From: Mytilus trossulus
Taxonomy: Eukaryota
Assembly: GCF_036588685.1 (NCBI RefSeq)
Contig: NC_086380.1
Coordinates: 33,594,313-33,658,312, forward strand
DNA length: 64,000 nucleotides
Direction of reading: 5' to 3'
Shown here: piece after piece, positions 16,839-45,858 of the stretch
How positions within the stretch are numbered: position 1 is the first letter of the stretch
Layout of the letters: each line of letters opens with the position of its first letter
Program-made: the position numbers and the translations under genes
The notes under the pieces: model-generated
What the model was told of the DNA's origin: nothing
What the model saw: the letters and a program-made list of their open reading frames with translations, nothing else
The model's database searches: none

Positions 16839-16978
16839 ATGTCTGCACCAAGGAGATCAGCCGATGAGCCTATCTACAGAATACCACCATATTATTATTT
16901 ACATGTATTGGACCAAAATCTAAACATCACAAGACTAGAGATTGGTCCACAGACCTTCATTAGACAAGACAATGAAAG
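16839..16978 (+). CDS. MVP: MVP-A exon 1 ([46 protein letters not shown], phase-2 end)
   Basis: ATG at 16839, donor gtaagg at 16979. Confidence 0.8.
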
Positions 16979-17363
16979 GTAAGGACTTTTTCTATAGAGT
17001 GCTTCCACTTAACAAAAGGACCACCTACATATCTTGGACATATGTTTGATCAGAACCTTGAAAAAACAGAACTAGAAAAATTCCATAGACCTTTCTTTTT
17101 AATGTAAGGCCATGAAAGACAATTTTGTGTAATCACTACTAACTACTTCATTATATACAATGAACAATTATTCTTGATATTATTCTGCAATTTTTATTCA
17201 CAAAAAGAAGGAATTGTTTTTAATTAATGAAAATTATATTAATTTTTAAGTTTTTTTTCTTTTTACCTGTTTAAATTATTATTCTTACATTTCTCTAAGC
17301 TATTACTGTAATCCAAAGGGAAAAGCTAATGTATCATATACATGTGCATTTTTTTACTTACAG

Positions 17364-17559
17364 AGTTGTATATGGACCTGAGCGTATGATCACTGTCCCC
17401 CCAAGGCATTATTGTATTATTGAAAACCCAGTACTGAAAGACAAAGAATGTAAAGTTGTTTTTGACGAAAGTGGACAGGCCAAACTTGTACATGCTGACC
17501 AGGAGATTAGATTGGCACAGGATCCTTTCCCACTGTACCCCGGGGAAATACTGAAACAG
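17364..17559 (+). CDS. MVP: MVP-A exon 2 ((R)[65 protein letters not shown])
   Basis: Acceptor tttttacttacag, donor gtatga. ORF-track frame 17329-17565. Confidence 0.9.
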
Positions 17560-18462
17560 GTATGATGTACCATTATGCTACACTTTGTTTTCATGTACAA
17601 TGTATTACTGTATGGCAATTATGTTGGCAGGGTGTGAATTTTTGCTTATTTTAGTGGATAGAACAAAATTGCCAAAATAAATTCCTCCTATATAAAAGTT
17701 ATCATGCAAAGGTATTGATAAAATGGTTGAATCCACCATAACAATAACCACCAAAGTATTTCGTATACCTTATTCAATGAAAATCGCAAAATTTACTTCG
17801 CTATACAGTATATTGTAACTTTACTGGTATAATTATTGTCAACTTCATGGAGAGGAAGTTTCATATTGAGGACAAAAGGATCTGTTTTGCTATCTAGCGA
17901 ATCAGTTGCTACTTTCATCGCTGGCATAATTGCTCAATTGCAAGGGATTTTGTAAGCATTTATCTGCTAGTCAGATGATAACATCTGCTTTTGAAATATT
18001 AACAGATACAATTTGAATAAGATCTGAGGAAATTGACTTTTTGAATTTAAGAGTCATGCTTTTGTTATTAATGCATTATAAAATATGTCAGGATGTTGAA
18101 AGCAACTTTTGTAAAATTAAAATTGAAAAGGAAGTAATCATGTTTACAAGGTAAAATGAAGGTCTTGTTTCTATATAGTACAGGTAACATTTAAAATTTG
18201 TTATTAAATCAACATTGATCAGTAGAGTGACAAGGAAGTAAGATGTCTTAGATGTTTAAGTTGATAGCACACACCTTTAAATGTCGTTCACCAAATTAAA
18301 ATGACATGATGTTCAATAGTTAAACTACTATTTTCAAGGTTAACAATATTATGTATGATTTAAATCTTCTTTCATTTTTTGATATTCATAATATTAGGGC
18401 TAGGTTATTATGATGCGAAAAGTGTTAGCAGCAAATTTTATTATCTCCCTTATTGTTTATAG

Positions 18463-18813
18463 GTTGTAACTCCCTTGAAAGTGGTAGCTGCCAACTCAGC
18501 TCTTCGGCTCAGAGCTATTTTAGACTTTGAAGATGACGATGAGGAAAAGAGAACAGCTGGGGATGAGTGGCTATTTGAAGGACCAGGAACATATATCCCC
18601 AGGAAAGAGGTTGTTATTGAGGAGACTGTCAGGGCCACAGTCATTAGACCTAATCAGGCCATTAGACTGAGGGCCAGGAAGGAGACTATTGACAGACAAG
18701 GTGTTGCTAGGGTAACTGGTGAGGAATGGCTGGTGAAGAAGACCGGAGCTTACCTCCCAGGAGCTTATGAAGAAGTTGTGGATGTTGTCAACGCCTATGT
18801 TCTAACAGATAAG
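18463..18813 (+). CDS. MVP: MVP-A exon 3 ([49 protein letters not shown]…NAYVLTDK)
   Basis: Acceptor tttatag, donor gtaaag. ORF-track 18475-18828. Confidence 0.9.
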
Positions 18814-19163
18814 GTAAAGAGGCTGTAGAGGGTACATAAAATGTCTTTTTGTGGAAACATGAAAGTAAAAAATTCAAATTTACAGTGAAATTATATAAGC
18901 ACATTATTGTACCAGCACAAAATTTAGGTAGATTTTAATTTAGAAAAAAATAGATGGCATTTGATGTTTGTTTAGGCAAGACCCTACAATACCTTATAAA
19001 AGGTTACTATCTATAATACATGTTATTGAGAGGAGAAAAACCTATAGAATAAAGAGTAAATCATACCAAAAATATACAGTACTCCTTTAATTGATGATTC
19101 TAAATATGTTTGGAGGAAATATGTATATTAAAGTTATTAAATATTTTCTTTCACATCTTGCAG

Positions 19164-19289
19164 AAAGCCCTTCATATGAGGTCATTGAGAACATTTAAAG
19201 ATGACTTTGGTGTAACAAGAAAGAACGGAGAGGAATGGTTGATCAAAATGACAGACACAGAAACACACATACCTAATGTGTATGAAGAG
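19164..19289 (+). CDS. MVP: MVP-A exon 4 (KALHMRSLRTFKDDFGVTRKNGEEWLIKMTDTETHIPNVYEE)
   Basis: Acceptor tcttgcag, donor gtatgt. Confidence 0.9.
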
Positions 19290-19749
19290 GTATGTATCAT
19301 GTGTATTGCACTGGTGTAAAATAACACATAATAAGGTAGTCATATGTTCTTTGTATCAATTCAATATTAACTTACTGTACATGTCCATACAAGTAAATGT
19401 AATGTTTTCAATATCTTTAAACCAGCTGGTTAACTGGAACCATTTATACTTTTGCGTAACAAAATGATGGGGAAAAGTGTCAAACTTACGCAAAGCTTTA
19501 TAGAAAATGTAATTATAAATTGTACAAAATTGTCTGAAAAGGACTAATCCTTAAAAACTATCTCTGAAAAAAATTAATTGGTTTCCTTGTTTTAATCTCC
19601 AGAACCTCAGTTGATTGCACAGGGATCATTTTCTATAACCATAATTGATAAATGATTTACCTTAATTTTACATAAGGAACATTTATTTATGGAATGATAT
19701 CAATGTCTAGCTTCTGACTTTAATGGACATGACTTTATTTTTTCATCAG

Positions 19750-19860
19750 GTTGTTGGAGTAGTGAATATTACCACATTAACCAGCAGACAATACTGTATC
19801 ATCCTTGACCCTTCAGATGAGCATGGCAGACCACAACTTGGTAGAAAGAAGTTAGTTAAG
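19750..19860 (+). CDS. MVP: MVP-A exon 5 ([37 protein letters not shown])
   Basis: Acceptor ttttcatcag, donor gtatgg. Confidence 0.85.
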
Positions 19861-20171
19861 GTATGGTGAAAATTTGTTTCATGAGAAATAACCCCTTCAT
19901 TCTATTATCATGATTATAAAACAATATCAATTACTACTTTTACTTTACTTTAGGAACTGTGAAAATAATACAAACTTAGTGTGTACTGCAAAATACAATG
20001 CATTTAAAATTCTTCTTTTGGTTGGAATTTGATGTTTCTTATAATTTATTGATATAAAAAAGTTTTAATAACAGAAAATTCATTATTTTTTATCAAGGGT
20101 CACAGCTTCTCTTTATGGTGCAGAGAGAAACATTTGATTACAGTACTCATAATTTCAATTTTTTTTTATAG

Positions 20172-20297
20172 GGTGAGTGTTCATTCTTTTTGTTACCTGG
20201 AGAACGATTTGAGAGAGGAATCCAGAATGTCTACGTTCTGGGAGAAGATGAAGGTGTTATACTGAGAGCTACAGAATCATTTAAAGATACTGATGCT
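20172..20297 (+). CDS. MVP: MVP-A exon 6 ([42 protein letters not shown])
   Basis: Acceptor tttttttatag, donor gtaagt. Confidence 0.85.
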
Positions 20298-22899
20298 GTA
20301 AGTTTCACACATATTTAATAAAACCAAATATCTGGAAAGTCATAAATTGATATTGGTGTGTTGGGAGTGTAGGCCTCCTAGGTAGCTGGCACATATCTGA
20401 CATAGATTACAGCTGTTTCTGCTTAACTAACAGGGTATAAGTCATCTGTATATGATACAGTTTCACTCATAGATGAACGAGTGGTGGTATTAGGTCATTG
20501 AACTAACGTCATTAAAATGGAAATTTCTTAAATAGCATCCCCATGATGACTATGAAAAATCATAAGAACAACTAAAAAAATCAGAAAAGAGACTGAATTT
20601 CTTGGATACTTCCCCTTTACGAACATGTATCATGATGTTGACCATTTCTATATTTCTTGCATGCCTTCTTTGCATATTGTTGAACAAAAGTTGATGAATT
20701 TGACACAACTTTGAAATAATGAACCTTCTGTCATGATACAAATGTGGTAGGAGTGAATCTTTTGAAGAAATCTTATTTTATATATCAATGAAGTGAATCT
20801 GGTTATTTTGCAACCAAAAAATAGCATTGCTTTGAAAAGAAGACAATTAGATAAACTAACCTTTGTATAAAGGATAAACTTTGCCTTGAATAAGTGGTAC
20901 ATGTACTTTGAATACTGTACACTATAGAGTGACCACATATATTTCAAAGTTATGTCAAATGATTAGTTTGTTTTGTTGTAAAACATTTATTTACTCCGCA
21001 TGTTAATATTTTGTTGTATAACATTCATTTACTCTACTTGATAATGCTGTCTCCCTCTCTGTGCTCAATTCGCCATTTCAGAATCTAAGGGACTCTGGGT
21101 AATTTAATTGTTCATACATCTGAATAAAGTTTACATTACACAATTAGGTTGGATATTTTGGTGATTACCAAATAGGATGTTTTGTCATAAATTTGAAAAA
21201 AGAACATTACCCAGAATACATGACTGGTAGATTCTGAAATGGTAAATTGTAAAACAAGTTTGATCCTGAAAATTGTTACTAGAGTAGGTGAATTTAACTT
21301 TTTTGTTTATTTCAGACTGATGAAAAAGTAAGTCAACAAGTGCTTTTAGTGCTTTCAGTGCTTTGATCTAACTGTTATTCTTGTTATAAACATTTGCTAT
21401 AAGTAATGACCTGCTTCAGAATAGGAAGGGCCGCCTACAATTGTCTTGTGTTTTCAATGTGTGTGTGTCCTTTCTACCTGTTTTGCTAATGCGTTTTGTC
21501 CAGTGTTTTTTCTTATCAATATTATAGGAAGTCTTGAAATTGAATCATTCATTTTATTCAAAACAAGATTAATTGAATTACACAATATTGTGATAAGTTA
21601 ATTTCATAGATTTCCTGAAATAAAGTGTAATTCACCTGTTATTTTATTATTGCATTGGAAAGTGCTAGAATTATTTTGCATGTAATAAATATTAACTAAA
21701 GATTTCTTATAATTTGTGCTTCAATAACATAAGTATGTTTTATATTAGGTGCATATTTCAACCTCAATTCCATTGGGAGACTCCTATACTGTTTATACAA
21801 AAGTAAGTCACAGTGACTTAGCTTCGTAAATAGATATTTAAAAATTCAATGTTGTTTGAATATATTTGTTATATAATCTTTTGTTCAAGTTTTCAAAAGA
21901 AATTTTTAAAATCAAAGCATTTGAATAAGTTATTTTCAAAAACAATTCTTGAAACATAATAAATATTAATAAGCTTTATTCTCAAGAACCCATTCTTGGT
22001 ACAAAACAAATCAGCTATTTTCATGCTGTCATCTAATATTCATATCTGTTTAGCCTTTTATTGTCCCCAATATCAATGTAATACTTGCCACTGGACATAA
22101 AAAATTGATTCATTATTATTTGTTGGATTCCAATTTTCATGGGTTTTGTGAGTACAGGTGAACTATGATTCAAATGTTCAACACATTACAAATTTTCTAA
22201 TGGCTTCAAAAGCACAGATTGGCAATACCAAGAAATAAAATATCCACTTAAATGCAAATTATCCTGCATCAACCAAAATGCCTCAGATTGATTTAATTTG
22301 AGATGCACATTCTTGATATTTTCAAAGCTTTTTATTACTATTAAATCAGTTTGCTTGGTATTTATGCCATATCTGCTTGAACATAATAGTATATTCATTT
22401 TTTTTACATTTTCAAGACTTACATGACTAACACTGTTTGAGATTTCTATTCATTCAAATTTCAAAACACATTTCATCAAACTCCTTTACTTATAGAGACC
22501 TGTTTTCTGTGTTCATACTAAATCTGGCTTTAAAGTTCAATTTAATATAGCCTTCATGTAGCTTCACAGGGGTTCTATCTCTGAGCAATAAAATATTTTT
22601 CATGAAGTACAAGTTCAGTCCTTTGACAAAGTTTTTCTTAGTGCATTTAGCATGCTTATTGACTTAAGTTTTCACCTACAAGTTTTTCATTTCAACTTTA
22701 TACTTATATGGCTGCTTTTTAATGTAGAACTGTTGGTATTTTTATAAATACTATCAGTTTAAGTCTTCAGAAGTCATTTCTTTTCATACTAGCACATGAA
22801 AGGATCTATAGTCAAAACAAGATTTACAAAATCAAGATTCTGTTGGGAAAGATTTTTTATGACAACAAAGTTATTTATTATCAAACTTTTTTATTTAAG

Positions 22900-23049
22900 G
22901 ATGTTGAAAGGAAACCAGGAGATAAATGGATGATCAGGGGACCAGCAGAATATGTACCACCTGTAGAGGTCGAGGTCATCATGAAGAGAACTGCAATCCC
23001 ATTGGACGAAAATGAGGGTATCTATGTCAGAGATATTAAAACTGGAAAG
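22900..23049 (+). CDS. MVP: MVP-A exon 7 ([50 protein letters not shown])
   Basis: Acceptor ttatttaag, donor gttggt. The phase-0 junction is the same as in paralog B. Confidence 0.8.
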
Positions 23050-23494
23050 GTTGGTGTTACACATATATATATATACTAACATTAAAACTAGATATCACAA
23101 TAACAATTTTTTTTTTTTTTTAAATTCAAAAGTAAGATAACAATCTTTTTTAAATGGAATATTTGGCAAAATGAAGTTATTTTTTGAAGTGAGGATTTTT
23201 TCATGAATTTTGTTAAACAAAAAACAATCTATTTTGTATATAACCGAACAATTCTGAGAATTTTGTGTATGTTAGGAAACACCGGGGATCTCTATTTTGA
23301 CCAAAAAAAATAAATTATAAATGACGATTTGATGTATTGTTATGTTTTCAAAATACACTGGGTACTGTATATCATTATTGAGAGAACACACTTATAACCA
23401 TTTACATAGTAACATCTCCCGTCATCCATCAACGTTTGATATTGTCTTTTCACTAGTGAAGTTTTGACTAAGATTAACATTATACATATTATAG

Positions 23495-23733
23495 GTCAGA
23501 GCTGTAACTGGAGAAACCTATATGTTAAACCAAGATGAGGAATTATGGGCCAAGGAACTTCCTCCTGCAGTCGAGACCCTTCTTGCCCAAGGAAAGGACC
23601 CTATGGCTGACAGGAGTGACCGGTCCAAATCAAGCGATTCATCAAAACCAAGGGACAAGACTCGTGTTGTCACATTCAGAGTGCCACACAATGCTGCAGT
23701 ACAGATTTATGATTATAAAGAAAAGAAAGCCAG
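23495..23733 (+). CDS. MVP: MVP-A exon 8 ([24 protein letters not shown]…[29 protein letters not shown](R))
   Basis: Acceptor attatag, donor gtaaat, phase 2. Confidence 0.9.
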
Positions 23734-24376
23734 GTAAATAGTGCTTCATACTCAGTGTATACATTCCCTTATCCAACAGGCCATGAGCAGAATTAGGCCA
23801 GTCATTTAATTCATTACAATACATGAATATTGATTGAGTAGAAGGTACACATTGTATACCAACTTCTTTCAGGGCTTCAGTGGCTTAGTTGTCTAAGAGG
23901 TTCATATACAATCATCACAATCTTTCAATTTGAGGTTGCAATTTCATACTCAACGTGTTCTAACAAGTATGTTAGACGTCAATCTTAATCGACAAAAAAT
24001 GCCAGTTTTCCTGCTGAATATCAATGGTTTCTTTCATGATACTCTGGTTTCTTCCATCAACAAAAATTCTTTACTTAAGTCATTGTTAAGTGTTGATTAA
24101 CTTGGACATTTGAATCAGTATGATAAAAATAAATAGTTACTTAGTTGTGGAAATTCTCTTTATTTAGAGTTTTACATCTGTTATTTAAAGAATGAATAAT
24201 GTATGTTCATTGAAGATTATCAAAAGGAAGAACTCGTGTATGTCTATTGAAACTGTGTGAACAAATGATTATCATTGTTGAAACAGATTGTTATGCCCCT
24301 CTAGTGATTTTATTAAAAATTATCAAAACCCTTGGAATAAACAAATAATAGCCATGTAATTTTCTTTCTATTCTAG

Positions 24377-24719
24377 AGTTGTGTTTGGTCCAGAATTAGT
24401 TATGTTGGGTCCAGATGAACAATTCACACAGCTTAGTCTCTCTGGAGGTAAACCAAAGAAACAAAACGTTATCAAATCATTGTGTTTACTTCTGGGACCT
24501 GATTTCTGTACTGACATTATCACCGTAGAAACAGCCGATCACGCCAGGTTGTCACTTCAGTTATCATACAACTGGCACTTTGATATTAAAAATAAAGAAG
24601 ATAAGGCTGAGGCATCTAAGATTTTCAGTGTACCAGATTTTGTTGGGGATGCCTGCAAGGCCATTGCCTCCAGGATCAGAGGGGCCGTGGCACAAGTACA
24701 GTTTGATGATTTCCATAAG
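24377..24719 (+). CDS. MVP: MVP-A exon 9 ((R)[68 protein letters not shown]…QFDDFHK)
   Basis: Acceptor ttctag, donor gtatgc. Confidence 0.9.
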
Positions 24720-25500
24720 GTATGCTTAATGAACAAGTAGACCTGCATAGACACAGACATTACCACTGAAATATTTTTATAGGTCAAATTCATAAAATAA
24801 TTGTTTTACCTGTTGATTCAATATTCATAAATATTACGCATATAAAAATGAGTGTGGTATGATTGGCAATTAGAGTTCTCTTCACAACAGAGACAAAGTG
24901 GCATAGAATTTAACCTTGCATTTTAGTTTTATGAACAAATAGACATGAGCTAAAAATTGTCTTTCAAAATTATACTAAAGAATTATTTCCAAACTTTTCT
25001 CAAAATCCAGGGGTGGTGCTATAAACTCAAGACAATAAGAGAACCTCTCTTGAATATCCTTTGGTGTTCCCTGAGGCATATTGATATATACGGAAACTTT
25101 ATGTTTTTATTACTGCATAATATAACTTTTTCTCCTCAGGGCAAGGAGGGGCGTAAATAGGGGGAATCTGCACGGAAGAACACAAAATAAAATTGCCATT
25201 TCATGATGAACGAAAACTTAAAAGTTTCCTGCACGTTGATCTTTTTTACCGATTTCATGAAACACAGTGAATAACGAACTTTTTTCACGGCTGCACATGA
25301 AATAAAAATGGTAAAACACTTGGCATAAAAATAACCCTTTACCACCCTCGCAAAGGAGTGAATCAATCCTATCAAATAAAAAAAAATATATTATGCCATA
25401 CAAAAAAAATATACGATCACAAATAATCAGTACAGACTGAAAATTATCTACTGTGTACAGAAAAATTCAGAATTAAGAAATTTGCACATTTATGTTACAG

Positions 25501-25712
25501 AATTCTGCTAGAATCATCAGATCTTCTGTGTTTGGATTTGATGACAAAGACAAAGTGCGTGAAGTTTTCAAATTCCCCCAAAACAATTTGGTTTTCACCA
25601 GTATTGATATCCAGTCTGTAGAACCTGTAGATCAGAGAACAAGAGATGCTTTACAGAAATCTGTACAACTGGCCATTGAAATCACAACAAACTCACAGGA
25701 AGCTGCTGCAAG
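25501..25712 (+). CDS. MVP: MVP-A exon 10 ([70 protein letters not shown](R))
   Basis: Acceptor tatgttacag, donor gtagat, phase 2. Confidence 0.85.
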
Positions 25713-26370
25713 GTAGATAACTCTTCAGAAACTTATACTGGTATATTAAAAACACCAAATTATTGTACAGGAGACTACTGCAAAGTAGTCATTAAAACAC
25801 AGTTCAATTCAAGATGACTGTAGAATATTTATAAAATTGGAGATGTGGTATGATTGCCAATGAGACAACTCTCCACCAGAGACCAAACTACATAATAGTT
25901 AACAAATTAAGGTCACTGTATGGCCTTCAACAATGAGCAAAACCCATACTGCATAGTAAGCTATAAAGTGAATTCTAAGTCTGAGTACGTAAATCATACT
26001 CTAAATTTTTATAACCGCCTGGCCTGACAGTTGACTATAAGCTAGTGAGCTTATACAGATATTAGCTTACCATGTTCTAGAAAAATGCAATATATATTTT
26101 ATATCACAGCAATGTATATTTCCCCAAATTATGTTTGAAAATTTTCTGCTAAATGTTTAAATTTTCTTTATTCAAAACATGATACATGAATAGTGGCAAA
26201 AAGTTGGTTGCTTAATTTGTTTTGACTTACATATCATAATAAATAGAATGGGTCCTCATATGCAACTATTCCAGTCATAATTAGGTTCGATAACTCTGTA
26301 TGTGACTGGTTTAATTAGGATTATGTAAAATGTACTGGTTACCCGTGTAATGATTTCAAAAAAATATATA

Positions 26371-26431
26371 TATAATTTTTATACGACCGCAAATTTTGAA
26401 AAAATTTTCGTCGTATATTGCTATCACGTTG

Positions 26432-26484
<53 letters not shown>

Positions 26485-28250
26485 CGAATACTTTTAGTTT
26501 TCGCACTCTAACTTTAGTAAAAGTGAATAGAAATCTATGAAATTTTAACACAAGGTTTATGACCACAAAAGGAAGGCTGGTATTGATTTTGGGAGTTTTG
26601 GTCCCAACATTTTAGGAATTAAGGGCCAAAAAGGGCCCAAATAAGCATTTTCTTTGTTTTCGCACTATAACATTAGTTTAAGTAAATAGAAATCTATGAA
26701 ATTTTGACACAAGGTTTATGACCACAAAAGAAAGGTTGGTATTGATTTTGGGAGTTTTGATTCCAACAGTTTAGGAATTAGGGGCCAAAAAAGGGCCCAA
26801 ATAAGCATTATTCTTGGTTTTCGCACAATTACTTTAGTGTAAGTAAATAGAAATCAATGAAATTTAAACACAATGTTTATGACCACAAAAGGAAGGTTGG
26901 TATTGATTTTGGGAGTTTTGGTCCCAACAGTTTAGGAATAAGGGGCCCAAAGGGTCCAAAATTAAACTTTGTTTGATTTTATCCAAAATTGAATAATTGA
27001 AATTCCTTGATATGCCGAATCTAACTGTGTATGTAGATTCTTAATTTTTGGTCCCGTTTTCAAATTGGTCTACATTAAGGTTCAAAGGGTCCAAAATAAA
27101 ACTTAGTTTGATTTTGACAAAAATTGAATCAGTTGGGTTCTTTGATATGCTGAATTTAAAAATGTACTTAGATTTTTTAATGTTGGCCCAGTTTTCAAGT
27201 TGGTCCAAATCGGGGTCCAAAATTAAACTTTGTTTGATTTCATCAAAAATTGAATAAATGGGGTTCTTTGATATGCCAAATCTAACTGTGTATGTTGATT
27301 CTTCATTTTTGGTCCTGTTTTCAAATTGGTCTACATTAAAGTCCAAAGGGTCCAAAATTAAACTTAGTTTGATTTTAACAAAAATTAAATTCTTGGGCTT
27401 CTTTGATATGCTTTATCTAAACATGTACTTTGATTTTTGATTATGGGCCCAGTTTTCAAGTTGGTCCAAATCAGGATTCAAAATTATTACATTAAGTATT
27501 CTGGAATAGCAAGAAATTTTCAATTGCACAGTATTGCACAATAGCAAGAAATATCAAATTGCAGAGTATTGTGCAATAGCAATTATTTTTTTCAATTGGA
27601 GTTATCTTTCTTTGTATAGAATAGTAGTTGAATCAACTTTAATCATTGTTTTATACAATATACAATGTATTTTCATTTTTACTACCAACTGATAAATTAA
27701 AACAATCTTTACCATTCAGTGATAACAAGCACTTTTTATAACATTTTAATATTGTATGATGTATTTAAATGAGCAGTTATTGTTGCAAACTTCATTAGAA
27801 ATTTGAATTGAAATCAGTACATTATAACTTTAGTATAAGTGAATAGAAATCTATGAAATTTAAACACAAGGTTTATGACCATAAAAGGAAGGTTGGTATT
27901 GATTTTGGGAGTTTTGGTCCCAACAGTTTAGGAATTTTGGGCCCAAAGGGTCCAAAATTAAACTTTGTTTGATTTTGACAAAAATTGAATCCTTGGGGTT
28001 CTTTGATATGCTGAATCTAAAAATGTACTTATATTTTTAATTATTGGTCCAGTTTTCAAGTTGGTCTACACTAAGGTCCAAAGGGTCCAAAATCATAATG
28101 TGACATAAACCTATGTTGTGTCAACTATTTAATCACAATCCACATTTAAAGCTGTATCAAACTTAAAAGTTGTGTCCATACTTGTCCCATCTGTTCAGGG
28201 TTCTACATCTGCGGTCGTATAATGCTGCGCCCTGCGAAGCAACTGGTTCA
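26371..28250 (+). mobile_element. Composite TIR-bounded non-autonomous element inside MVP-A intron 10. Termini are TTTATACGACCGCA … TGCGGTCGTATAA. Interior contains a (GTC)n microsatellite (26433-26484), a ~160-bp satellite x3, a ~117-bp satellite x5-6, ~35-bp cagtattgcacaatagcaagaaat repeats and a unique tail.
   Basis: The two ends carry the same 13-nt motif in inverted orientation. The whole structure recurs on the - strand at 38996-41335 and 43921-45905. Confidence 0.65.
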
Positions 28251-29562
28251 TCTTTGTTACCATCCATCCGTGGTTTCCTTTTGTTAATATAAAATATTAT
28301 AATAAAATGATTCCATAAACAATCGTATAATACTAATATATGTATTAGGTCTTGTCAAAACTTCATCGTGATTAGGCCACGTTGCCATGTTTGTTTTCTT
28401 TGATCACGTTGATGACTTAATTAATATCTCCACAATCTAGCTTTATCCTTGATTATCATACGAGTTACAATAACGTGTCATATTTAATTGCAATACAAAC
28501 AGTTAAATCTTATTGAATTATTTGCATGTGCAAAATAAGTGTCGAACATCGTCTACGTTTGAAAATTATTTGGTCGCCATTTTGTTATATGTAACTTCGA
28601 AATTTTATCAAAACAAATAGCATGTATCCACTTTAACAGAGGGAAATAATGTTTAATTCTATGCTGCATTAAGGTAAGACAATTATTGAAAAGACATGAA
28701 TCTAACAATTTTTCGATTTTCATCGTACAAATCTTTAAAAATATATATTCCCATGTCGCCCCAAGCTAACAATGTACATGCAAACTGCATGGTCGGTGCA
28801 TGTAAATCTTTATTTTTAGTGTGAGAGACTGTTTCTAATAAATATATTGAAGAACATGTGAAAATAGAAATTTCTTAAGTACAAAAAGACACACTTTGAT
28901 AAATGTCTTAAATATTACTTTTTACATTTATAACTAAATTAATACCGGCATGTCATGTCGTTCTGAACCTTCAACAGTGGCCGCCATTTTGAAAATATTG
29001 CTGAAGACTGCCAAAATATGAACTTTTCAACCAAATTTCGAAGCAAAAAGTTTAATACCTGAACTGATATGGTTTGCGATTTCATTTAAAGGAATATGTT
29101 GTCGATCTTTTTAGGGGTTGGAAGGATATAAGTTACAATAAATTAGTTGAGAAAATTGATTTTACAAAAAGGTCCCATTGCAATTTTATCGAGTTTTAAC
29201 GAAGATGTCAACGAAGGCTGTGTGGCTATGTCACCTCAATTTTCAAACTTATTTCGAAGCACGAAATCATATTTCTGAACTAAAACTTAAAACATATTTA
29301 ATTGTAAAAACTTATTAACTGTAAAACGCGGGGTTGGGAGGGAAAATATACATTATAACAAAAAAGTTATGACCGTTTTATCTATGTACCCCGTTCACTT
29401 TCATTGATAATCAATCGGCCATTAATGATATACAACTTAAGTGTAAAAGTCACGTGATGAGGGAGATAGTTGGATATGTGAACCCTATTGTTGGGAACCT
29501 GTACATGATTTGGTTGTTCAGAAACAAAAGAATTATATTCTTTTCATGCTTAGGCCTTTTTT

Positions 29563-30440
29563 TTTTAATTAGTTGGTTTACGGATCCGCCGACCCGATTT
29601 TGTTTAAAAGTGAAATAAAATTAAAATTTTGATTTCGTGTTGTTTTTTATTCCGCCGACCCGATTTTTCGAGTGCTGTGAATAAAAAAATCCGAGGCGTT
29701 CCAAAACGTTTTGTCTGTGTCAATAAAGCGTTTGTAGTGAACGGCGTATTTTGAAAAGCTTCGAAATGACGCAGACGAATTCAAAAACCCAACGAGGGAG
29801 GACCATGGAGTCTGACGGCTTCATCTACTTTCAGTTGAATATTAACTTTGATGGTCAACGTACTGAGAGCACTTTTATCAAATGCAAACCTAAGCAAACA
29901 ATCGGCGATGCCATATTCGACAATATGGCTGATGAAAATGTTGCCATTGTCAAGGTACAAACAGTTTCGCCACCAAACAAAACTAGGGCAGACACCCCTA
30001 CCAGTACACCCGTAGAAGTGCTTGCGTCCTTTGGGGCAAAAATTATATTTGTTGATGTAAATGAAGGAGCACCTCCAGAAAAAAGTGCAAAGCTGAACAT
30101 GGATGATAAAGTTAATGCTTTTTCAATCCTACTCATTATCATATTCTCATCCTAATTATGCATCTGATTAGCCACTAGACATTAAACAACAATTGACCAT
30201 CCATCCATCAAATGCAAAGCATATCAAGATAAGAGCTAAACTATTTCTCCTCCTCAACCCCTGTAATGTCATGAATGAACAGCTTTTTTTTTTTTTCCTC
30301 CGACTCAAATTTTTCAGAACAGTTATACGTGAACAAAAAAAAAATCTAAGATTGCTATTTTATTTTTATTTTTTTTACCTCCTCCGACCCTAACCTTTGA
30401 CACTAGTTGTCCGTAAACCAACTAATTAAAAAAAAAAGGC
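29563..30440. mobile_element. Harbinger/Tourist-like non-autonomous element with a 33-bp perfect TIR GGCCTTTTTTTTTTTAATTAGTTGGTTTACGGA and flanking TTA. Carries an internal 134-aa ORF (29751-30155).
   Basis: The 5' end reads gcTTA|GGCC… and the 3' end reads …GGCC|TTAgaag. The reverse complement of the 3' terminus matches the 5' terminus base for base over 33 nt. Subterminal CCGACCC repeats are present. Confidence 0.65.
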
Positions 30441-30513
30441 CTTAGAAGCAATATGCAGAACATAAATTAATGAATATAAATGGAGAATTTTATCAATCTA
30501 TATTTTTTTTCAG

Positions 30514-30757
30514 GCATGAGGCAGAAAGATTAGAACAGGAAGCTAAAGGAAGATTAGAGAGACAAAAGATTTCAGATGAAGCAGAAGCTGAGAAATCCAG
30601 GAAACAATTGTTAGAATTACAGGCAAACAGTGCTGCAGTAGAGAGTACTGGTCAGGCTAAAGCAGAGGCACAGTCCCGAGCTGAAGCTGCCAGGATTGAG
30701 GGTGAGGCAGCTGTAGACCAAGCCAAACTGAAATCACAGGCCATGAAGATTGAAGCA
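30514..30757 (+). CDS. MVP: MVP-A exon 11 ((R)[81 protein letters not shown])
   Basis: Follows a 4.8-kb intron. Acceptor ttttttttcag, donor gtaagt. Confidence 0.85.
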
Positions 30758-31650
30758 GTAAGTAGAATAATGTGTTGCCCTGTCAGAATATCACAGGGTA
30801 TGCATCCAGTGATTCAAGGATGTTCGTTACTCTATTTCAAAATAACAAGCTTTTTAAAAGACTATTATAAATTGATAGTATATAAACAATGAAACTAAAA
30901 AAGCAGAAAAAAATGAAGGGTCCGTGTGCTTGTTTTCTAGATATAAGCCATTGAAAATTTGGCGGGAATTAATTCTTTCTAAATTTTTCATACACTTAAC
31001 ATTGGCACCTTTTTTCTTTCAAAAACGAATAAAAAATAACTAGGAATTTATAAGATTTTCATATATGACATTTTAAACTATTTGTAATCAAATTATGAAA
31101 AGAAAGGTAGGGGTTAGTGGGCAAAATTTTTAATGGCCTTACATGGATAAAACCAGAGGATTCTGAATGCCTAGCAAAAAATCAAAAACAAGAAGAGCGA
31201 ACATCCTAAACCACAAATTTAAATATTCAACAAACTACAAATCTCCTATTGCTTGTCTGGACTTTCTCAATCCATGGATATTTGTATCCATGAAAAGAAA
31301 GTAATCCAGAGTATATGTTATATAATAAAAAATAAAGAGACATCGTAAGACTGCCAATGACTCAAATTTCAACCTGAGACCAAAGATTAAAGATGTAAAC
31401 AACAACATGTACATGGAAAGGTATGCCCTTCAACAATGAACAAAACACATACCTGGTAGAAAATTTTTAAAGTATTTCAATAAATAACAACTATAAATAA
31501 AGTTATTAGGCAACACTTGAAAGTAATTAACGGAAATTGTCTTACAAAATGAATACTTGATTTTTCTAATCCAAATGTCAAGGTACATATTTACTCTTGA
31601 TAATGCAAATGTTTGAGAGTGTATTTTCAATTTCTTTGTTGACTTTGTAG

Positions 31651-31989
31651 GAGTCTGAATTAGAGAGATTAACACAAGCCAGAGAGGCAGAACTTAAATA
31701 TGTGAGAGAGCAGAACGATATGGAACTTTCAAAATCAAAAGAAATGTCAACCATCGAAACAACAAGGTTCAAGAACATGGTGGATGCTATTGGAGCAAAT
31801 ACATTGGCAACCATGGCTTCAGCTGGACCAGACCAACAGGTCCGTATGTTGCAGTCCCTGGGCCTGAAATCCACCCTTATCACAGACGGTAGCACACCAA
31901 TTAATCTGTTCAATACAGCTAATGGTTTGATTGGAGGTATGATGCCAGCAAAGAGGAGCAGGAGGACTGATGACGAAGACGATGATTAA
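31651..31989 (+). CDS. MVP: MVP-A exon 12 ([112 protein letters not shown])
   Basis: Acceptor tttgtag, stop TAA at 31987-31989. Confidence 0.9.
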
Positions 31990-32991: not shown

Positions 32992-35734
32992 TTAATGAAA
33001 AGTAATAAAATCTTTTGATCTTTTGAACAAAGACTGAACACAACAGAACATCAAACAGGCTATTTATTTAGACTTCACACTTGCAAAATACCAAATATTA
33101 AGATAGTTTTTCTGGGTACCAAAACCCTAGACATGACATACCTCATAAAAGAAAAGAAACAACACACACAATACATGCTACACACTTATTTGGATGACTG
33201 CAAAGTATCATGTGAAGCCTGACAGTTTGCTGGTAGTCAAATTATACTCCAAGTTAATGTATGGACACTGCACATGCTAAAAGAAGCTGGCTGACTTCAA
33301 CCAGTACAAATCACTGACCTCTGTAATAACAGTATACTATGTGGATTTATTGTATAGATAAAAAAGAAAGATGTGGTATGATTGCCAATGAGACAACTCT
33401 TCACAAGAGACCAAATGACACAGAAATTACCAATGAGCAAAGCCCATACCGCATAGTCAGCTATAAAAGGCCTCGAAATGACTACTGTAAAACAATTCAA
33501 ACGAGAAAACTAACGGCCTAATTTATGTACAAAATAATGAACTAACAAGCATCCTGAGAGTATTGCATGGCAATACATAGTCCCCTACTGGTTAAAAATT
33601 AATTGTACTGGAACAAAATGCTAACTTGATCTATAATTGTCATGGTGTTATTTATACATAACAAATATCAAATCAATATCTTCAAGCATGACAAAAAAAA
33701 GTGTGGAAAACTGATTATTTAAGTCCAAGGACCAAAACTCTGTACAAAATCATTAGACTGAAACAAAATTCGAACTTGGTCTGTAACTTATATGATAAAA
33801 ATTTAAAAAAAAACAGACACTTTAAATCACAAAATTGATCAGCAAGTCAAGATCTACTAACAAGTCAAACTTTGCTGATATATTTAGAAGACTGTCACTA
33901 TCTATAGGAGTGATTGCCCTTAAACAAAGAATTTTTTTTACCCACTTTTGTGTTTTGAGCAAGAACTAAAGAAGATAAAATGAATATTTTAATATTCAAG
34001 TGCAACCTGAATTATAACAAACAATTATATTCAAATATACATAAAGGCAATAGCAGTATATCGCTGTTGAATAGTCATAAATCGATTTAACTGAAACAAA
34101 TCCGGGTCACAAATCAAACTGAGGGAACACATCAAATATAAGAGGAAACAAAACGGAACAAAAGAAACATTAAACTGCTAAAAAAACCAAAACAACATAC
34201 ATAGAAACGGACTATGTGATAACAACTGCCACATTCCTGAATTGATACAGGACATTTAAAGAAAAAAATAGTGGGTTGAAACTGGTTTTATGGCTAGTCA
34301 AACCTGCAGCTTATATGGCAATGTAAAAAAATACCATTTAGATGACAACATTACGTGACAGGAATACAGTACAAATAAAAGCAAGAACATTCAGGACAGA
34401 GAAATACATCAATAAATAATATAATAATTAGGGATGTCAACTCGGTGAAGATTTACTAATCGAGTAATCGTTGGATTTACCGAGCAATACTCGGAGTACT
34501 CCCTCAGTAAAACATTTACAAAATGGAAACACAAAAGTATACCCGACGATCATCTGGTAGCAATATATATATGCTTTCCAAGTACAATGTACACTGCAAA
34601 TATACCAAAGACAATGCCGATTTTTTATGCAAATAAAACAATTACAAAGATCTTGAAGATAAATTTAATTGGTGTCAACTGGTTCAAAAGTTAAACATAT
34701 ATTATTCTGGTCCTAATTAAAGTTTGTAGGACGATTTGAGCATCGATGAAGAGACATTAATTGTCGAAGTATGCATCTCGTTCAGTAAAACTTGTACCAT
34801 TAATGTTATTATTTCCATTGAGTAAATACTTCTGCTGGTGCGCAGTTTGTCCCCGAAGGTTATACCAGCCCAGTATTCAGTTCCTGATCGGTAATAGCAT
34901 GCAAATACAAATAATGTTTTTGATTGAAATTTCCTATCGACTCGTGAAATTTAAAGATGAGAAATATATCTCACTAAAAAAGCAAAGCTCGGATTCCTTG
35001 TCCGGATTTGGCTTTACTTGGGGTCCATTTTGGTTTGATCAGCTCTTCAATAGTTGTAGAAGAATTTGAATTTTTAGAGCATCTTTGAAGAGACATTAAT
35101 TGTCAAAATACGCACCTTTTGTATTAAAATGGGTAACGTTAATGTTATTGGCCATTGCGTTAAAATTGCAGACAAGTTTTGTTTATAGGAACAGCATTGG
35201 CACAAATGTGTTCAATAGCCTCGTTTTAAAAGTGATTTTCCTCTTTTTACTGCATAATGTGTGGTATTTATATACAGGTATAATGTATTAAAACCCGAAA
35301 GTTAATTAGCAGTTAAAGTCTTCGATGAATGAAATATTTTTATACGTTTGACTTAATATGAATGTTAATCTGCACAAAGGACTACGTTAAGTGTATATGC
35401 ATGCATTGGTGATCAATGGTTTAATTATTTAATAAAATAATTATCACCAGAAACTCGTTTTATATTACTATATGAATATAAATCTCAAAATATAAACATA
35501 TTTATATCCAAGTCTTTTATGATATACGCATGTTGCACGCCTCGTGATTATTGGAATAGTGCTGAAGTATTGTAAAAGTCACTGTTCAGTGTTTGGTTTA
35601 AGTAACCATTAAAGAGAAGTGCAAAACTGTCCTTATAGAAAATCATGTTTGTCTTCCTTTGAAGAAAAAATGTATGCTGTTTCCGACGGCGGCTACGGCG
35701 TCAACAATGCATAAGTTTGTGATAAGGTCAGTGT

Positions 35735-36070: not shown

Positions 36071-36134
36071 CAGCGCTTATTGGCTTTGAAACTTGAAACG
36101 TATTAGGTTGTGATTAAGACGATATATATATATA

Positions 36135-37527
36135 TTTGGCAATCGCCAATGGCAGTCAGCAGGGTTAAAGAACATCAGTTGTTCGACCTGTTAGTCAAAT
36201 GCGTTTTGTTTAAATATACTTTTTCACTCTTTTGGTCTTTTGGAAAATGTTGTTTGTGCTGTTTTTAGACCCTTCTACAACGAAATTTGTTTGACATGCA
36301 CACGTATAAAAATTGCGGTTTTTATCCAACGCAGTCATAGGTTTGAACGTAGTTTTCAATTTAGACTCGTTTATATTTTTTGTTTGGGCATGTATCATAT
36401 TTTCCCTCCGGTTTATATGATCCGTTCATCCTATATATTGACTCTTAAAATTCAAGAGTTAATCTAAAAATGAGGGTACTTTCTCTAAAAATGAGGGTGC
36501 TTTTTATATGGCCTTCCAAATACCGTTTCGATCCCTAACATCACTGAAGAGACATTTATTGTCGAAATCCGGATATGGTGTACTAAAGAAATATTGACAC
36601 CGAATGTTTGTGGCACAACATCCTGTCCACAAGTTAACAAATTTTTTTTTTTCTGTGACGTATTAAATTTATAATCAGATCCATTTTGTTACAACCTGTG
36701 ATCAATTTTATTTGGCAATCGCCAATGGCAGTCAGCAGGGTTAAAGAACATCAGTTGTTCGACCTGTTAGTCAAATGCGTTTTGTTTAAATATACTTTTT
36801 CACTCTTTTGGTCTTTTGGAAAATGTTGTTTGTGCTGTTTTTAGACCCTTCTACAACGAAATTTGTTTGACATGCACACGTATAAAAATTGCGGTTTTTA
36901 TCCAACGCAGTCATAGGTTTGAACGTAGTTTTCAATTTAGACTCGTTTATATTTTTTGTTTGGGCATGTATCATATTTTCCCTCCGGTTTATATGATCCG
37001 TTCATCCTATATATTGACTCTTAAAATTCAAGAGTTAATCTAAAAATGAGGGTACTTTCTCTAAAAATGAGGGTGCTTTTTATATGGCCTTCCAAATACC
37101 GTTTCGATCCCTAACATCACTGAAGAGACATTTATTGTCGAAATCCGGATATGGTGTACTAAAGAAATATTGACACCGAATGTTTGTGGCACAACATCCT
37201 GTCCACAAGTTAACAAATTTTTTTTTTTTCTGTGACGTATTAAATTTATAATCAGATCCATTTTGTTACAACCTGTGATCAATTTTATTTGGCAATCGCC
37301 AATGGCAGTCAGCAGGGTTAAAGAACATCAGTTGTTCGACCTGTTAGTCAAATGCGTTTTGTTTAAATATACTTTTTCACTCTTTTGGTCTTTTGGAAAA
37401 TGTTGTTTGTGCTGTTTTTAGACCCTTCTACAACGAAATTTGTTTGACATGCACACGTATAAAAATTGCGGTTTTTATCCAACGCAGTCATAGGTTTGAA
37501 CGTAGTTTTCAATTTAGACTCGTTTAT
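36135..37527. repeat. 576-bp tandem repeat, 2.4 copies, copies identical to the base. Bounded by (TA)n on both sides.
   Basis: Period 576 (unit starts at 36135, 36711 and 37287). The ORF-track pairs 36210/36786 and 36240/36816 are 100% identical. The third copy is truncated where (TA)n begins at ~37527. Confidence 0.85.
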
Positions 37528-37700
37528 ATATATATATATATATATATAACATTGTTGGGTTGATGTCTAGACGAGTTGTATATATATACATTGTTGGGTT
37601 GATGTTTAGACGAGTTGTATATATATACATTGTTGGGTTGATATTTAGACGAGCTGTATATATATATATATATATACAATTCGTCTAAACATCAACCCAA
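37527..37700. repeat. (TA)n plus 3 x ~40-bp tandem motif acattgttgggttgat(g/a)t(c/t)tagacgag(t/c)tgtatatatata, followed by its inverted copy. Forms a local palindrome.
   Basis: Direct reading. The inverted copy caattcgtctaaacatcaacccaacaatgtta lies at 37678-37709. Confidence 0.7.
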
Positions 37701-37737
37701 CAATGTTAGATCTGTAAATTTGCTTTCGCAAATTTTT

Positions 37738-37841
37738 GGTTCTTCCCTCGCCGGGATTCGAACCCATGCTACTGTGATATCGTGACACCAAATCGCCTGC
37801 ACTGCAGCCGTCCCGCTAGACCACACGACCACCTGGGCTCT
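37738..37841 (-). mobile_element. tRNA-derived SINE-like unit, copy 1 (reverse complement reads gagcccaggtggtcgtgtggtctagcgggacggctgcagtgcaggcgatttggtgtcacgatatcacagtagcatgggttcgaatcccggcgagggaagaacc)
   Basis: Contains D-loop-like GGTCTAGCGG and T-loop-like GGTTCGAATCC boxes (pol III A/B-box-like), but is ~100 nt long and does not fold as a canonical tRNA. Confidence 0.5.
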
Positions 37842-38172
37842 CGAAAAAAGAGCTTTCGCTGGCCGTGTGTTACCTTTCCACGTCAGTTTTAATCTAGCGG
37901 CGTACTACAGAACATGATATATAAGGCATGAAGATGTTATTGTTACAGATCAGCTAAATTATCTATAGTAAAGGATCCTACAAATTAATGTAAGACACAG
38001 TCATAGAAAATAATTATATTTATAAGTACGTCTGAGTCAGTGACAACTCCACAACAGATGTATCCATCGGATCGCCATCAATGATACATGGCTGTGTACA
38101 TAATGTATATACAACTCGTCTAAACATCAAACCAACAATGTTAGATCTGTAAATTTGCTTTCGCAAATTTTT

Positions 38173-38275
38173 GGTTCTTCCCTCGCCGGGATTCGAACCC
38201 ATGCTACTGTGATATCGTAACACCAAATCGCCTGCACTGTAGCCGTCCCGCTAGACCACACGACCACCTGGGCTT
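38173..38275 (-). mobile_element. tRNA-derived SINE-like unit, copy 2
   Basis: ~95% identical to copy 1, with the same flanking agatctaacattgttgg… tail. Confidence 0.5.

Positions 38276-45826: not shown

Positions 45827-45858
<32 letters not shown>

Follow-up and report, generated by a model that had tools for sequence, protein, structure and literature searches.

The window, a 64,000-nucleotide stretch of Mytilus trossulus DNA (NC_086380.1, positions 33,594,313 to 33,658,312), contains two major-vault-protein (MVP) genes, A and B, that are arranged tail to tail. The best protein match of MVP was found in Pinctada (86%); a near-identical MVP protein was not on record, and an exact look-up of the 293-aa ORF returned no match. 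Three blocks of approximately 2 kb are located within 20 kb of each other in or next to the 3' parts of the two genes, and the question raised by this locus is whether these blocks are mobile and, if so, to which class of element they belong. The initial annotation described them as copies of a non-autonomous DNA transposon that is bounded by terminal inverted repeats (TIRs) and carries satellite arrays.

Copies of the element and their interior

The three regions aligned collinearly from TTTT+TATACGACCGCA to GAGCATCTGGTT, and similarity was absent outside these points. All three copies are full-length. Copy 1 (26376-28248, + strand, 1873 bp) is inserted in sense orientation in the MVP-A intron between the exons at 25501-25713 and 30503-30772. 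Copy 2 (38993-41324, - strand, 2332 bp) is located approximately 1.2 kb past the last MVP-B exon in the same orientation as MVP-B, and copy 3 (43927-45914, - strand, 1988 bp) lies in sense orientation in the MVP-B intron between the exons at 47618-47349 and 42869-42540. These positions confirm the placement first proposed, with one copy in an intron of each gene and the third downstream of MVP-B, and refine the boundaries given at that time (26371-28250, 38996-41335, and 43921-45905). All full copies are sense to, or co-oriented with, MVP, a number (n = 3) that is too small to infer a bias.

A degenerate fragment reported at 9180-10245 is also real, with boundaries refined to approximately 9131-10243 (+ strand). 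This old copy, the fourth in the window and 16 kb from the others, is truncated at the 5' side and has neither the 5' module nor the microsatellite; its 160-bp monomers are degenerate, its right module and hairpin are present, its 3' subterminal repeat has decayed, and its end is CAGGTTT. Its identity was approximately 68-78%, counted over still-alignable stretches only. Four further copies were found in public metagenome contigs (L005, L018, L023, and L015), with other flanks, the same junctions, and up to 97.5% identity. Copy 3 is the youngest-looking copy, with 97.3-97.5% identity to L005 and L018, and copy 1, a rearranged variant, showed approximately 88% identity to the other copies. The identities across copies, from approximately 70% to 97.5%, indicate a range of ages.

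The three full copies share one architecture in a fixed order, as had been described, according to both the three-region alignment and TRF. In copy 1 (+ strand), a (GTC)n microsatellite (26433-26484) is followed by array 1 (26497-26947, three 159-161-bp monomers), array 2 (26948-27486, four alternating units of 133-135 and 128 bp), array 3 (27495-27582, 2.5 units of 35 bp), and a non-repetitive right module of approximately 600 bp (27583-28209). The alternating units of array 2 form a 261-bp higher-order repeat, and the second satellite, originally given a length of approximately 117 bp, has this 261-bp period in TRF. Every 35-bp unit of array 3 holds the palindrome ATTGCACA-GTAT-TGTGCAAT.

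The copy numbers of the arrays varied between insertions in both TRF and the alignment, in agreement with the earlier description. The microsatellite has 17 perfect units in copy 1, 10 units in copy 3, and approximately 24 degenerate units in copy 2. Among the full copies, array 1 (period 159-161 bp) comprised 2.9-3.9 units and array 3 (35 bp) 2.4-5.9 units. The differences are whole units, that is, one 161-bp unit fewer in copy 1 and one 261-bp unit more in copy 2, in which four 160-bp monomers, six array-2 units, and 5.9 units of 35 bp are present. The third monomer of array 1 in copy 1 is an m3/m4 hybrid, which indicates the loss of a unit that the other copies retain. The monomers are position-specific, with 94-100% identity at the same position between copies vs 80-91% between different positions within a copy. 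In the right module of copy 1, a 270-bp patch (27824-28093), which copies the fourth array-1 monomer together with the initial array-2 unit, stands in place of 169 bp found in the other copies; the module contains a second, ectopic copy of the array 1/array 2 junction.

The absence of coding capacity noted at the outset was borne out, as the longest ORF in the element was 82 aa and was read through the microsatellite. Nothing in the element reached a gathering score in Rfam. An origin from a structured RNA or SINE was considered and rejected, since only sub-threshold miRNA-like matches were obtained, on the microsatellite and the palindromic 35-bp units.

Structure of the ends

At its 5' junction, copy 1 (+ strand) begins with the T-run TTTT (26376-26379), followed by the 5' subterminal inverted repeat (subTIR) TATACGACCGCA (26380-26391), which together with the preceding T pairs perfectly over 13 bp with 28210-28222. 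A nested inverted repeat, GTCGTATA (26410-26417), lies 18 nt after the 5' subTIR and can pair with the first 8 of its bases. At the other end, the 3' subTIR TGCGGTCGTATA (28210-28221) is followed by the stem-loop TGCT-G-CGC / CCT / GCG-A-AGCA (28223-28241) and the terminus ACTGGTT (28242-28248), to which 1-5 more T are added in other copies. The distance to the respective end is 4 nt for the 5' subTIR and 27 bp for the 3' subTIR.

The 13-mer TTATACGACCGCA gave 6 matches, one per end per full copy, vs 0.01 expected. In copies 1 and 3, TTATACGACCGCA and TGCGGTCGTATAA pair perfectly over 13 bp, and copy 2 has one mismatch per arm. The end signature of the element is TTTTTATACGACCGCA at the 5' side and TGCGGTCGTATAA-hairpin-CTGGTT at the 3' side; the 5' module matched 3 times and the 3' hairpin/end motif 4 times vs 0 expected for each.

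Six of the seven 5' junctions consisted of a non-T base and TTTT followed by TATAC(G/A)ACCGCA, and the remaining one (L023) had TTGT. The flank base before the T-run was A in four of six cases and C in two. All six 3' junctions read C(T/A)GGTT plus 0-5 T, and the number of T there varied from 2 to 7. In each of the six 3' ends, including those of L005 and L018, 26-27 conserved bases (hairpin and CTGGTT) were found past the 3' subTIR. The last 60 bp showed 87-100% identity between copies, and the copies therefore belong to one subfamily according to the criterion of PMC4067079.

The 5' hairpin, with an AAATTTT/AAAATTT spacer, had a folding energy of -9.2 to -9.6 kcal/mol (z -2.3 to -2.4) in the copies with an intact repeat. 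In all copies, the 3' stem-loop, GCT-N-CGC/CCT/GCG-N-AGC, is separated from the subTIR by 2-3 nt and from the end by 7-8 nt. It is weak alone (-6.2 kcal/mol, z approximately -1), and this energy is not significant. Substitutions in this stem-loop between the full copies are confined to the unpaired internal mismatch positions, and in the old copy (10217-10242) a single C-to-T change results in a G-T wobble.

These results require changes to the initial annotation. The hairpin had been placed ahead of the terminus; in the orientation of the element, it follows the 3' inverted repeat and is part of the element, and the inverted repeats are therefore subterminal. The element is thus not bounded by TIRs, as it extends by TTTT beyond the 5' repeat and by 26-27 bases beyond the 3' repeat. 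Target-site duplications had been proposed as a check on the termini, and comparison of the junctions of five complete copies revealed neither a target-site duplication nor a flanking direct repeat; the ends are T-runs of varying length.

Dispersal and class of the element

A metagenome scan with the subTIR and the nested inverted repeat yielded 23 loci, 4 of which are the genuine copies described above; the other 19 are chance matches, including a recurrent phage-like hairpin. This hairpin explained all 7 matches in viral contigs, and the 3' end pattern had no match in viral contigs. L023 was considered as an autonomous or alternative element and was rejected, since this copy is truncated within the first 160-bp monomer (<1 unit) and continues into non-coding sequence. 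Only non-autonomous copies were recovered by the scan. No autonomous partner was found within the window, where none of the four ORFs of at least 130 aa has Rep, helicase, or endonuclease domains.

[quoted passage not shown] In HINEs, the 12-15-bp subTIRs are set back from the 5' end by 2-4 nt and a palindrome from the 3' end by 8-35 bp; the boundaries are T-runs of variable length, the target is TT and stays unmodified, and a microsatellite or tandem repeats are present (PMC4067079). The set of features given in PMC7492417 comprises a 5' subTIR, a complementary inverted repeat, a microsatellite that is often GTCY/GTCC/GTCK, central repeats of approximately 160 bp, and a 3' subTIR followed by a palindrome. 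Elements of such anatomy were moved to the Helentrons because autonomous partners have the same ends, and at least 11 identical subTIR bases define membership of the same family (PMC4067079).

The element described here has subterminal inverted repeats of 12-13 bp, within the approximately 11-15 bp of HINEs, and asymmetric ends with the 5' subTIR 4 nt from the terminus. An inverted repeat complementary to this subTIR lies slightly downstream, the end modules enclose a microsatellite and central tandem repeats, and the 3' subTIR is followed by a stem-loop ahead of the 3' end. The five complete copies start with TTTT, end with TT plus 0-5 T, and have no flanking direct repeats, which corresponds to the HINE insertion pattern as far as junctions are concerned. 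We conclude that the copies very probably represent one family of HINE. Elements of this type are non-autonomous and derive from rolling-circle (Helitron-like) transposons that encode an endonuclease. The results support the view that the element is a non-coding, non-autonomous mobile element acting as a vehicle for satellite-like arrays, and this part of the initial proposal stands; the cut-and-paste TIR class does not, given the asymmetric ends and the lack of a target-site duplication. Elements with the 'satellite-in-transposon' organisation cited for bivalves do exist, but their class is HINE (pearl, DTC84, MgE, and Cg_HINE). It follows from the HINE anatomy that the expected partner is a Rep/helicase/endonuclease Helentron and not a DDE transposase element. 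Several points count against the assignment: no autonomous Helentron with these termini was found in the window, no empty site could be aligned at base resolution in the paralogous introns, the 3' hairpin is weak by itself, the distance of the 3' subTIR from the end (27 bp) is smaller than the 38-60 bp of mite HINEs (PMC4067079), and the 3' CTGG followed by T also fits the CTRR of canonical Helitrons. The boundary between Helentron-type and Helitron-type ends is not absolute in this element.

The presence of three copies within 20 kb in the 3' parts of two tail-to-tail paralogs might suggest a segmental duplication, or the spread by gene conversion of a local composite repeat tied to the MVP duplication. 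We consider this explanation extremely improbable. The copies occupy non-equivalent positions (the MVP-A intron after 25501-25713, the next intron of MVP-B, and a site downstream of MVP-B), and the equivalent introns of the other paralog are approximately 0.85 kb long without the element. No homology adjoining the junctions was detected between the flanks of different copies, which are T/A-rich and unrelated to each other. Moreover, identical boundaries occur in four unrelated metagenome contigs, and a much older fourth copy is present 16 kb away. The copies at other insertion sites with unrelated flanks indicate a dispersed mobile element rather than a segmental duplication, and the mobile unit initially proposed is thus upheld, with the copies as independent insertions. 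As a separate observation, the flanks share only an unrelated short dispersed repeat, 250-500 bp off and in inconsistent orientation.

Two other kinds of mobile element were weighed against a HINE. The perfect 13-bp inverted repeats near both ends, the non-coding interior, and the T-rich junctions on both sides, readable as a 'TT' duplication, recall a classical MITE, that is, a deletion derivative of a cut-and-paste DDE transposon with 13-bp TIRs and a short TT/AA or TA duplication. In the earlier literature, elements of this kind were indeed classed as MITE-like and credited with a putative duplication of AA (PMC3879986), and pearl and DTC84 were originally so described. A MITE is nevertheless unlikely, since every copy has asymmetric ends with 4 bases outside the 5' repeat vs 26-27 conserved bases outside the 3' repeat, and the 2-7 T at the 3' end are incompatible with a fixed-length duplication. 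No other flanking direct repeat was present, the TIR abutted by a fixed-length target-site duplication that marks a MITE was absent, and the whole group has been reassigned to Helentrons via autonomous partners with the same ends (PMC4067079). A non-autonomous canonical Helitron (Helitron1 type, 5'-TC...CTRR-3', inserted between A and T) appears slightly less probable still. The 3' CTGG and the following T fit CTRR before a T, with the hairpin directly upstream, the base before the T-run is A in four of six 5' flanks, and oyster counterparts are filed in Repbase merely as 'Helitron-N' (PMC7492417, Supplementary Table S4). However, two of the six 5' flanks end in C, and the 5' end is TTTTTATAC and not TC. 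The 12-13-bp subTIRs with a nested 5' inverted repeat are hallmarks of Helentrons and HINEs that canonical Helitrons, which lack inverted repeats, do not have (PMC4067079).

For the preferred HINE assignment, a mechanism can be proposed by analogy with the established behaviour of Helitron/Helentron elements. A Rep/helicase(/AP-endonuclease) from an autonomous Helentron elsewhere with the same termini would recognise the subterminal repeats and hairpins. The enzyme would nick one strand, and a single-stranded rolling-circle or 'peel-and-paste' intermediate would mobilise the element, with the 3' stem-loop as a stop signal. The element would then be joined into a T-rich site between T residues, and no duplication would be made because of this mode of joining. 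The insertion between T residues is inferred from the junctions only, since the paralogous introns are too diverged to align; alignments of the MVP-A and MVP-B introns in both directions matched only at the exon edges. The arrays travel as cargo, and their monomers had diverged according to position by the time the family dispersed. Once inserted, the arrays change by whole units via unequal exchange or slippage (one 161-bp unit lost in copy 1, one 261-bp unit gained in copy 2, 2.4-5.9 units of 35 bp, and 10-24 microsatellite units). Patch-like recombination changes them as well, and the 270-bp patch in the right module of copy 1 is an example.

Relation to known elements and significance

The oyster Cg_HINE (PMC7492417), which is filed in Repbase as Helitron-N*_CGi (PMC7492417), resembles the present element in its 5' subTIR, complementary inverted repeat, variable microsatellite of the GTC(N) type, 160-180-bp repeats, and 3' subTIR with a stem-loop. 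The single orientation of the array, the occurrence of more than one array in some elements, and the size (approximately 0.9-2.6 kb) are also similar. Cg_HINE has one array and exceptionally two, whereas the present element has three consecutive unrelated arrays (160, 128/135, and 35 bp). Unlike Cg_HINE, the present element has a trinucleotide microsatellite, (GTC)n, and a non-repetitive right module of approximately 600 bp between the arrays and the 3' end.

Pearl and DTC84 (PMC3879986) are likewise composite and non-coding. Their flanking modules contain short inverted repeats, a core repeat of approximately 160 bp is present 1-6 times next to a microsatellite, the ends have a T/A dinucleotide, and a palindrome occurs within the repeat units (here, the 35-bp units). 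In both DTC84 (PMC3879986) and the present element, the core-repeat variants are fixed in position whatever the copy number. Compared by description only, pearl and DTC84 differ in their tetranucleotide microsatellites (ACGG/ACGA, ACTG), single array, and much shorter length.

In regards to Mytilus galloprovincialis, MgE (Kourtidis et al. 2006, as cited in PMC7492417 and PMC3879986) is, according to these citing papers, a bivalve element of the same architecture, with satellite sequences in introns of the conserved gene HSP70; it appears as DINE-1-like in Additional file 1 of PMC4067079. In the description given in PMC3879986, to which this comparison is limited, MgE has no microsatellite segment, whereas the present element has one.

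The DINE-1/HINE elements of Drosophila, mosquito, and mite (Thomas et al. 2014, PMC4067079) have no detectable sequence relationship to the present element. They share with it 12-15-bp subTIRs 2-4 nt from the 5' end, an inverted repeat with its 5' half nested inside the 5' subTIR, central tandem repeats together with a microsatellite, a short stem-loop past the 3' subTIR, variable boundary T-runs, and no target-site modification. The 3' subTIR is 27 bp from the end in the present element vs 38-60 bp in the mite. An autonomous partner has been demonstrated for DINE-1/HINE families (PMC4067079), whereas the present element is known from non-autonomous copies alone.

None of the four subTIR 8-mers occurred in the supplement text of PMC7492417, which is a weak test given that the subTIR table of that supplement is not legible, or in the supplement text of PMC4067079, where the relevant tables and figures stand outside the text. 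A literature text search with the subTIR and the monomers gave only unrelated primer/template matches and no paper on these elements. The kind of element is already well described in bivalves, and the finding is real but ordinary; the unusual point is the three consecutive arrays within one element. A further reading, which is less likely than not, is that the copies belong to a previously uncatalogued, recently active HINE family in which a single element brings together three unrelated satellite-type arrays, always in the same order, and also shuffles them.

The element adds another well-resolved bivalve case that links Helentron derivatives to satellite-like DNA, with three arrays and position-specific monomers, and the differences between copies show whole-unit gain and loss together with patch recombination; neither point changes the current understanding. 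If the 160-, 128/135-, and 35-bp repeats also form long free-standing satellites, one Helentron derivative would have seeded several satellite DNAs in a datable manner and would have created new satellite junctions. In genome annotation, the appropriate mask or label for the 2-kb blocks is that of a Helentron-derived (rolling-circle) non-autonomous element, and the labels TIR transposon, satellite, and segmental duplication should be avoided. For the MVP genes, the insertions most probably amount to a neutral intron or intergenic load, and the copies explain a large part of the difference in length between equivalent introns of the two paralogs.

Copies and boundaries of the element

We read and aligned the three regions carrying full copies, and these form one collinear element: copy 1 at 26376–28248 (+, 1873 bp), copy 2 at 38993–41324 (−, 2332 bp), and copy 3 at 43927–45914 (−, 1988 bp). 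In the alignment, the homology started with TTTT followed by TATAC(G/A)ACCGCA and ended with GCG(G/A)AGCA(T/A)CTGGTT, and the sequences beyond both boundaries were unrelated among the three copies. The 13-mer TTATACGACCGCA gave 6 matches in the window (0.01 expected), one per end of each copy and in inverted orientation. The 5′ module gave 3 matches and the 26-base 3′ end motif gave 4, with none expected for either; the fourth match of the latter (10217–10242) belongs to a 5′-truncated old copy at about 9131–10243 (+), which showed 68–78% identity where alignment was still possible. Tandem Repeats Finder gave the internal order (GTC)n, a 159–161-bp array, a second array, and a 35-bp array. These results bear out the architecture shared by the three copies and the degenerate copy near 9–10 kb, both proposed in the initial annotation. 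In regards to the second satellite, the proposed ~117-bp unit was replaced by alternating units of 133–135 and 128 bp with a higher-order period of 261 bp. An inverted repeat just 3′ of the old copy (~10468–10640 and ~10657–10829; arms of ~170 bp, 98.9% identity) is possibly an element of the foldback or hairpin type.

Public metagenome contigs were scanned for the subterminal repeat with its nested complement, and the matches were examined using BLAST and inspection. Four of the 23 loci were genuine copies: L005 and L018 were full-length and 97.3–97.5% identical to copy 3, L023 was truncated, and L015, at the edge of a contig, comprised only the 5′ end. The remaining 19 were chance matches, among them a recurrent phage-like hairpin that accounted for all 7 viral-contig matches. 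Thirteen metagenome/viral contigs (L008, L012, L016, L017, L021, L022, and L024–L030) share a conserved sequence, TTTTCAAA-TATACGACCGCA-ATCACARCGAAA-GTCGTATA, which appears to be a phage hairpin; it contains a 12-mer and an 8-mer of the element's 5′ end and is otherwise unrelated, and this sharing looks coincidental.

With the metagenome copies, seven 5′ and six 3′ junctions were compared. A non-T base, exactly TTTT, and then TATAC were found at six of the seven 5′ junctions (TTGT in L023), and all six 3′ junctions read C(T/A)GGTT followed by 0–5 further T. The flanks were unrelated among copies. Identical junctions with unrelated flanks, in the window and metagenome copies alike, rule out a segmental duplication, and the element is established as a dispersed element with fixed ends. 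The 5′ flank of L005 (1–96 of contig Ga0209652_1033528) itself belongs to the element and corresponds to the stretch where the 35-bp array meets the right module, which indicates that a 3′-truncated copy lies directly upstream of the complete one. Such an arrangement has been reported for rolling-circle elements and was seen here in a single case of ~90 bp.

End structure and classification

The inverted repeats are subterminal, with 4 bases outside the 5′ repeat and 26–27 conserved bases outside the 3′ repeat. GTCGTATA, the complement of the first eight bases of the 5′ repeat, lies 18 bases downstream of that repeat; the two, with the AAATTTT/AAAATTT spacer, fold into a hairpin whose energy is −9.2 to −9.6 kcal/mol (z about −2.3 to −2.4) where the repeat is intact. 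In the element's own orientation, the hairpin-like motif initially placed before the terminus comes after the 3′ inverted repeat, and it belongs to the element. This small stem-loop (GCT-N-CGC / CCT / GCG-N-AGC) is unremarkable in energy by itself (−6.2 kcal/mol, z about −1); the differences among full copies are confined to two unpaired mismatch positions, and a C-to-T change in the old copy gives a G-T wobble. A microsatellite and tandem repeats lie between the end modules. The longest ORF in the element encodes 82 aa and is read through the microsatellite, in agreement with the suggested lack of coding capacity, and an Rfam search of the element gave no family at threshold.

The element had been regarded as a TIR-bounded DNA transposon, a reading not supported in view of inverted repeats that are not terminal, asymmetric ends, and the missing target-site duplication: comparison of the junctions, as had been suggested, revealed that none of the five complete copies is flanked by a direct repeat and that the T-runs are variable. 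The asymmetry of the ends and the variation of the T-runs do not fit a classical MITE either. A canonical Helitron would account for the 3′ end, where CTGG followed by T (28243–28248, with equivalents in the other copies) fits the CTRR|T terminus and a hairpin lies immediately upstream; however, neither the 5′ end nor the inverted repeats fit this class. Judged from the sequence, the anatomy matches item by item the defining structure of a Helentron-associated interspersed element (HINE), a non-autonomous Helentron derivative. Thomas et al. described subterminal inverted repeats of 12–15 bp located 2–4 nt from the 5′ end, a palindrome 8–35 bp from the 3′ end, a microsatellite and central repeats, boundaries with T strings of variable number, insertion at a TT target that is left unmodified, and, in DINE-1, an inverted repeat nested in the 5′ repeat (PMC4067079).

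The HINE kind is already well known and in bivalves is the standard carrier of satellite-like repeats. Vojvoda Zeljko et al. reported the same substructures in eleven oyster Cg_HINE elements, with satellite-like central repeats of about 160–180 bp and GTCY, GTCC, or GTCK microsatellites, and the same architecture in pearl, DTC84, and MgE of other bivalves (PMC7492417). The present element contains three consecutive unrelated arrays, whereas the oyster elements contain one, exceptionally two; its trinucleotide microsatellite and long unique right module are also somewhat unusual. Sequence strings of the element gave no relevant match in the literature text and supplements, in which the key table of subterminal repeats was illegible.

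By analogy with established Helitrons and Helentrons, an element with such ends and modules, no coding capacity, no target duplication, and a dispersed distribution would be mobilised in trans by a Rep/helicase(/endonuclease) protein, presumably encoded by an autonomous Helentron that shares the element's termini. The route would be a single-stranded rolling-circle intermediate, for which the 3′ stem-loop may serve as terminator, with putative integration between T residues. No autonomous partner was found within the 64-kb window. The longest ORF of the window (293 aa, 6708–7589, −) gave only marginal Pfam matches (MbeD/MobD-like, 22.8 bits; AdoHcyase, below cut-off), and an exact-match look-up found none on record.

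Tandem arrays and relationships among copies

The 160-bp monomers at the same position in different copies were 94–100% identical, and those at different positions within one copy were 80–91% identical. These values indicate that the array was already structured before the family spread; a comparable position-specific array structure has been reported for DTC84 (PMC3879986). The copy numbers of the internal arrays differ between copies, as had been noted, and the differences are whole units: copy 1 has one 161-bp monomer fewer, with an m3/m4 hybrid at the join, and copy 2 has one additional 261-bp unit. The 35-bp array, each unit of which contains an 8+8 palindrome, ranges from 2.4 to 5.9 units, and the microsatellite varies between 10 pure units and a degenerate stretch of about 24. 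In copy 1, a 270-bp patch (27824–28093), 90.7% identical to copy 2, duplicates monomer 4 together with unit 1 of the second array and takes the place of 169 bp of the right module. These 169 bp are still present in copies 2 and 3 as well as in the old copy, which indicates that the patch is a derived rearrangement.

Whole-element identity was 88% for copy 1 against the rest, 93% for copy 2, and 97–97.5% among copy 3, L005, and L018. Together with the ~70% copy near 9 kb, these identities indicate that the family has been active for a long time and into the recent past. The last 60 bp were 87–100% identical among copies, which places them in one subfamily by the published criterion.

Insertion context in the MVP genes

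Six-frame self-comparison, translations, and a protein search revealed two MVP paralogs in a tail-to-tail arrangement, gene A on the + strand, with exons spanning about 16818–31983, and gene B on the − strand, spanning about 56724–42540; the translations matched the Pfam vault and shoulder domains, and the best named match was Pinctada MVP (86%). Copy 1 lies in the gene A intron between exons 25501–25713 and 30503–30772, and the equivalent gene B intron (about 840 bp) has no element. Copy 3 lies one intron further along, in gene B (exons 47618–47349 and 42869–42540 on either side), and the equivalent gene A intron (about 880 bp) likewise has none. These results indicate that the element was not part of the MVP gene duplication. 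Copy 2 lies about 1.2 kb past the last exon of gene B, with no equivalent site in gene A. The exon map confirmed the placement and sense orientation initially assigned. The paralogous introns gave no base-level empty site, since they are too diverged and only exon edges align.

Other repeats were observed around these genes. A 58-bp minisatellite (53436–55485; ~30 units, 174-bp higher-order period) occupies most of the gene B intron between exons 56147–55944 and 53251–52895, and the gene A counterpart (17563–18462, ~0.9 kb) is without it. A local repeat block between the two genes (36107–38681) contains a ~577-bp tandem duplication (36107–37533; 98–100% identical in translation), a 39-bp minisatellite (37539–37666), and 120-bp repeats at 37669–37794, 38110–38229, and 38556–38681. 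A separate short dispersed repeat of ~90–150 bp has at least 6 copies in the window (25824–25967, 46164–46307, 33359–33477, 49960–50055, 60662–60778, and 5509–5659), 70–87% identical to one another. Two of these are located near the 5′ ends of copies 1 and 3, at a distance of 250–500 bp, and their inconsistent relative orientation indicates that this repeat does not belong to the element.
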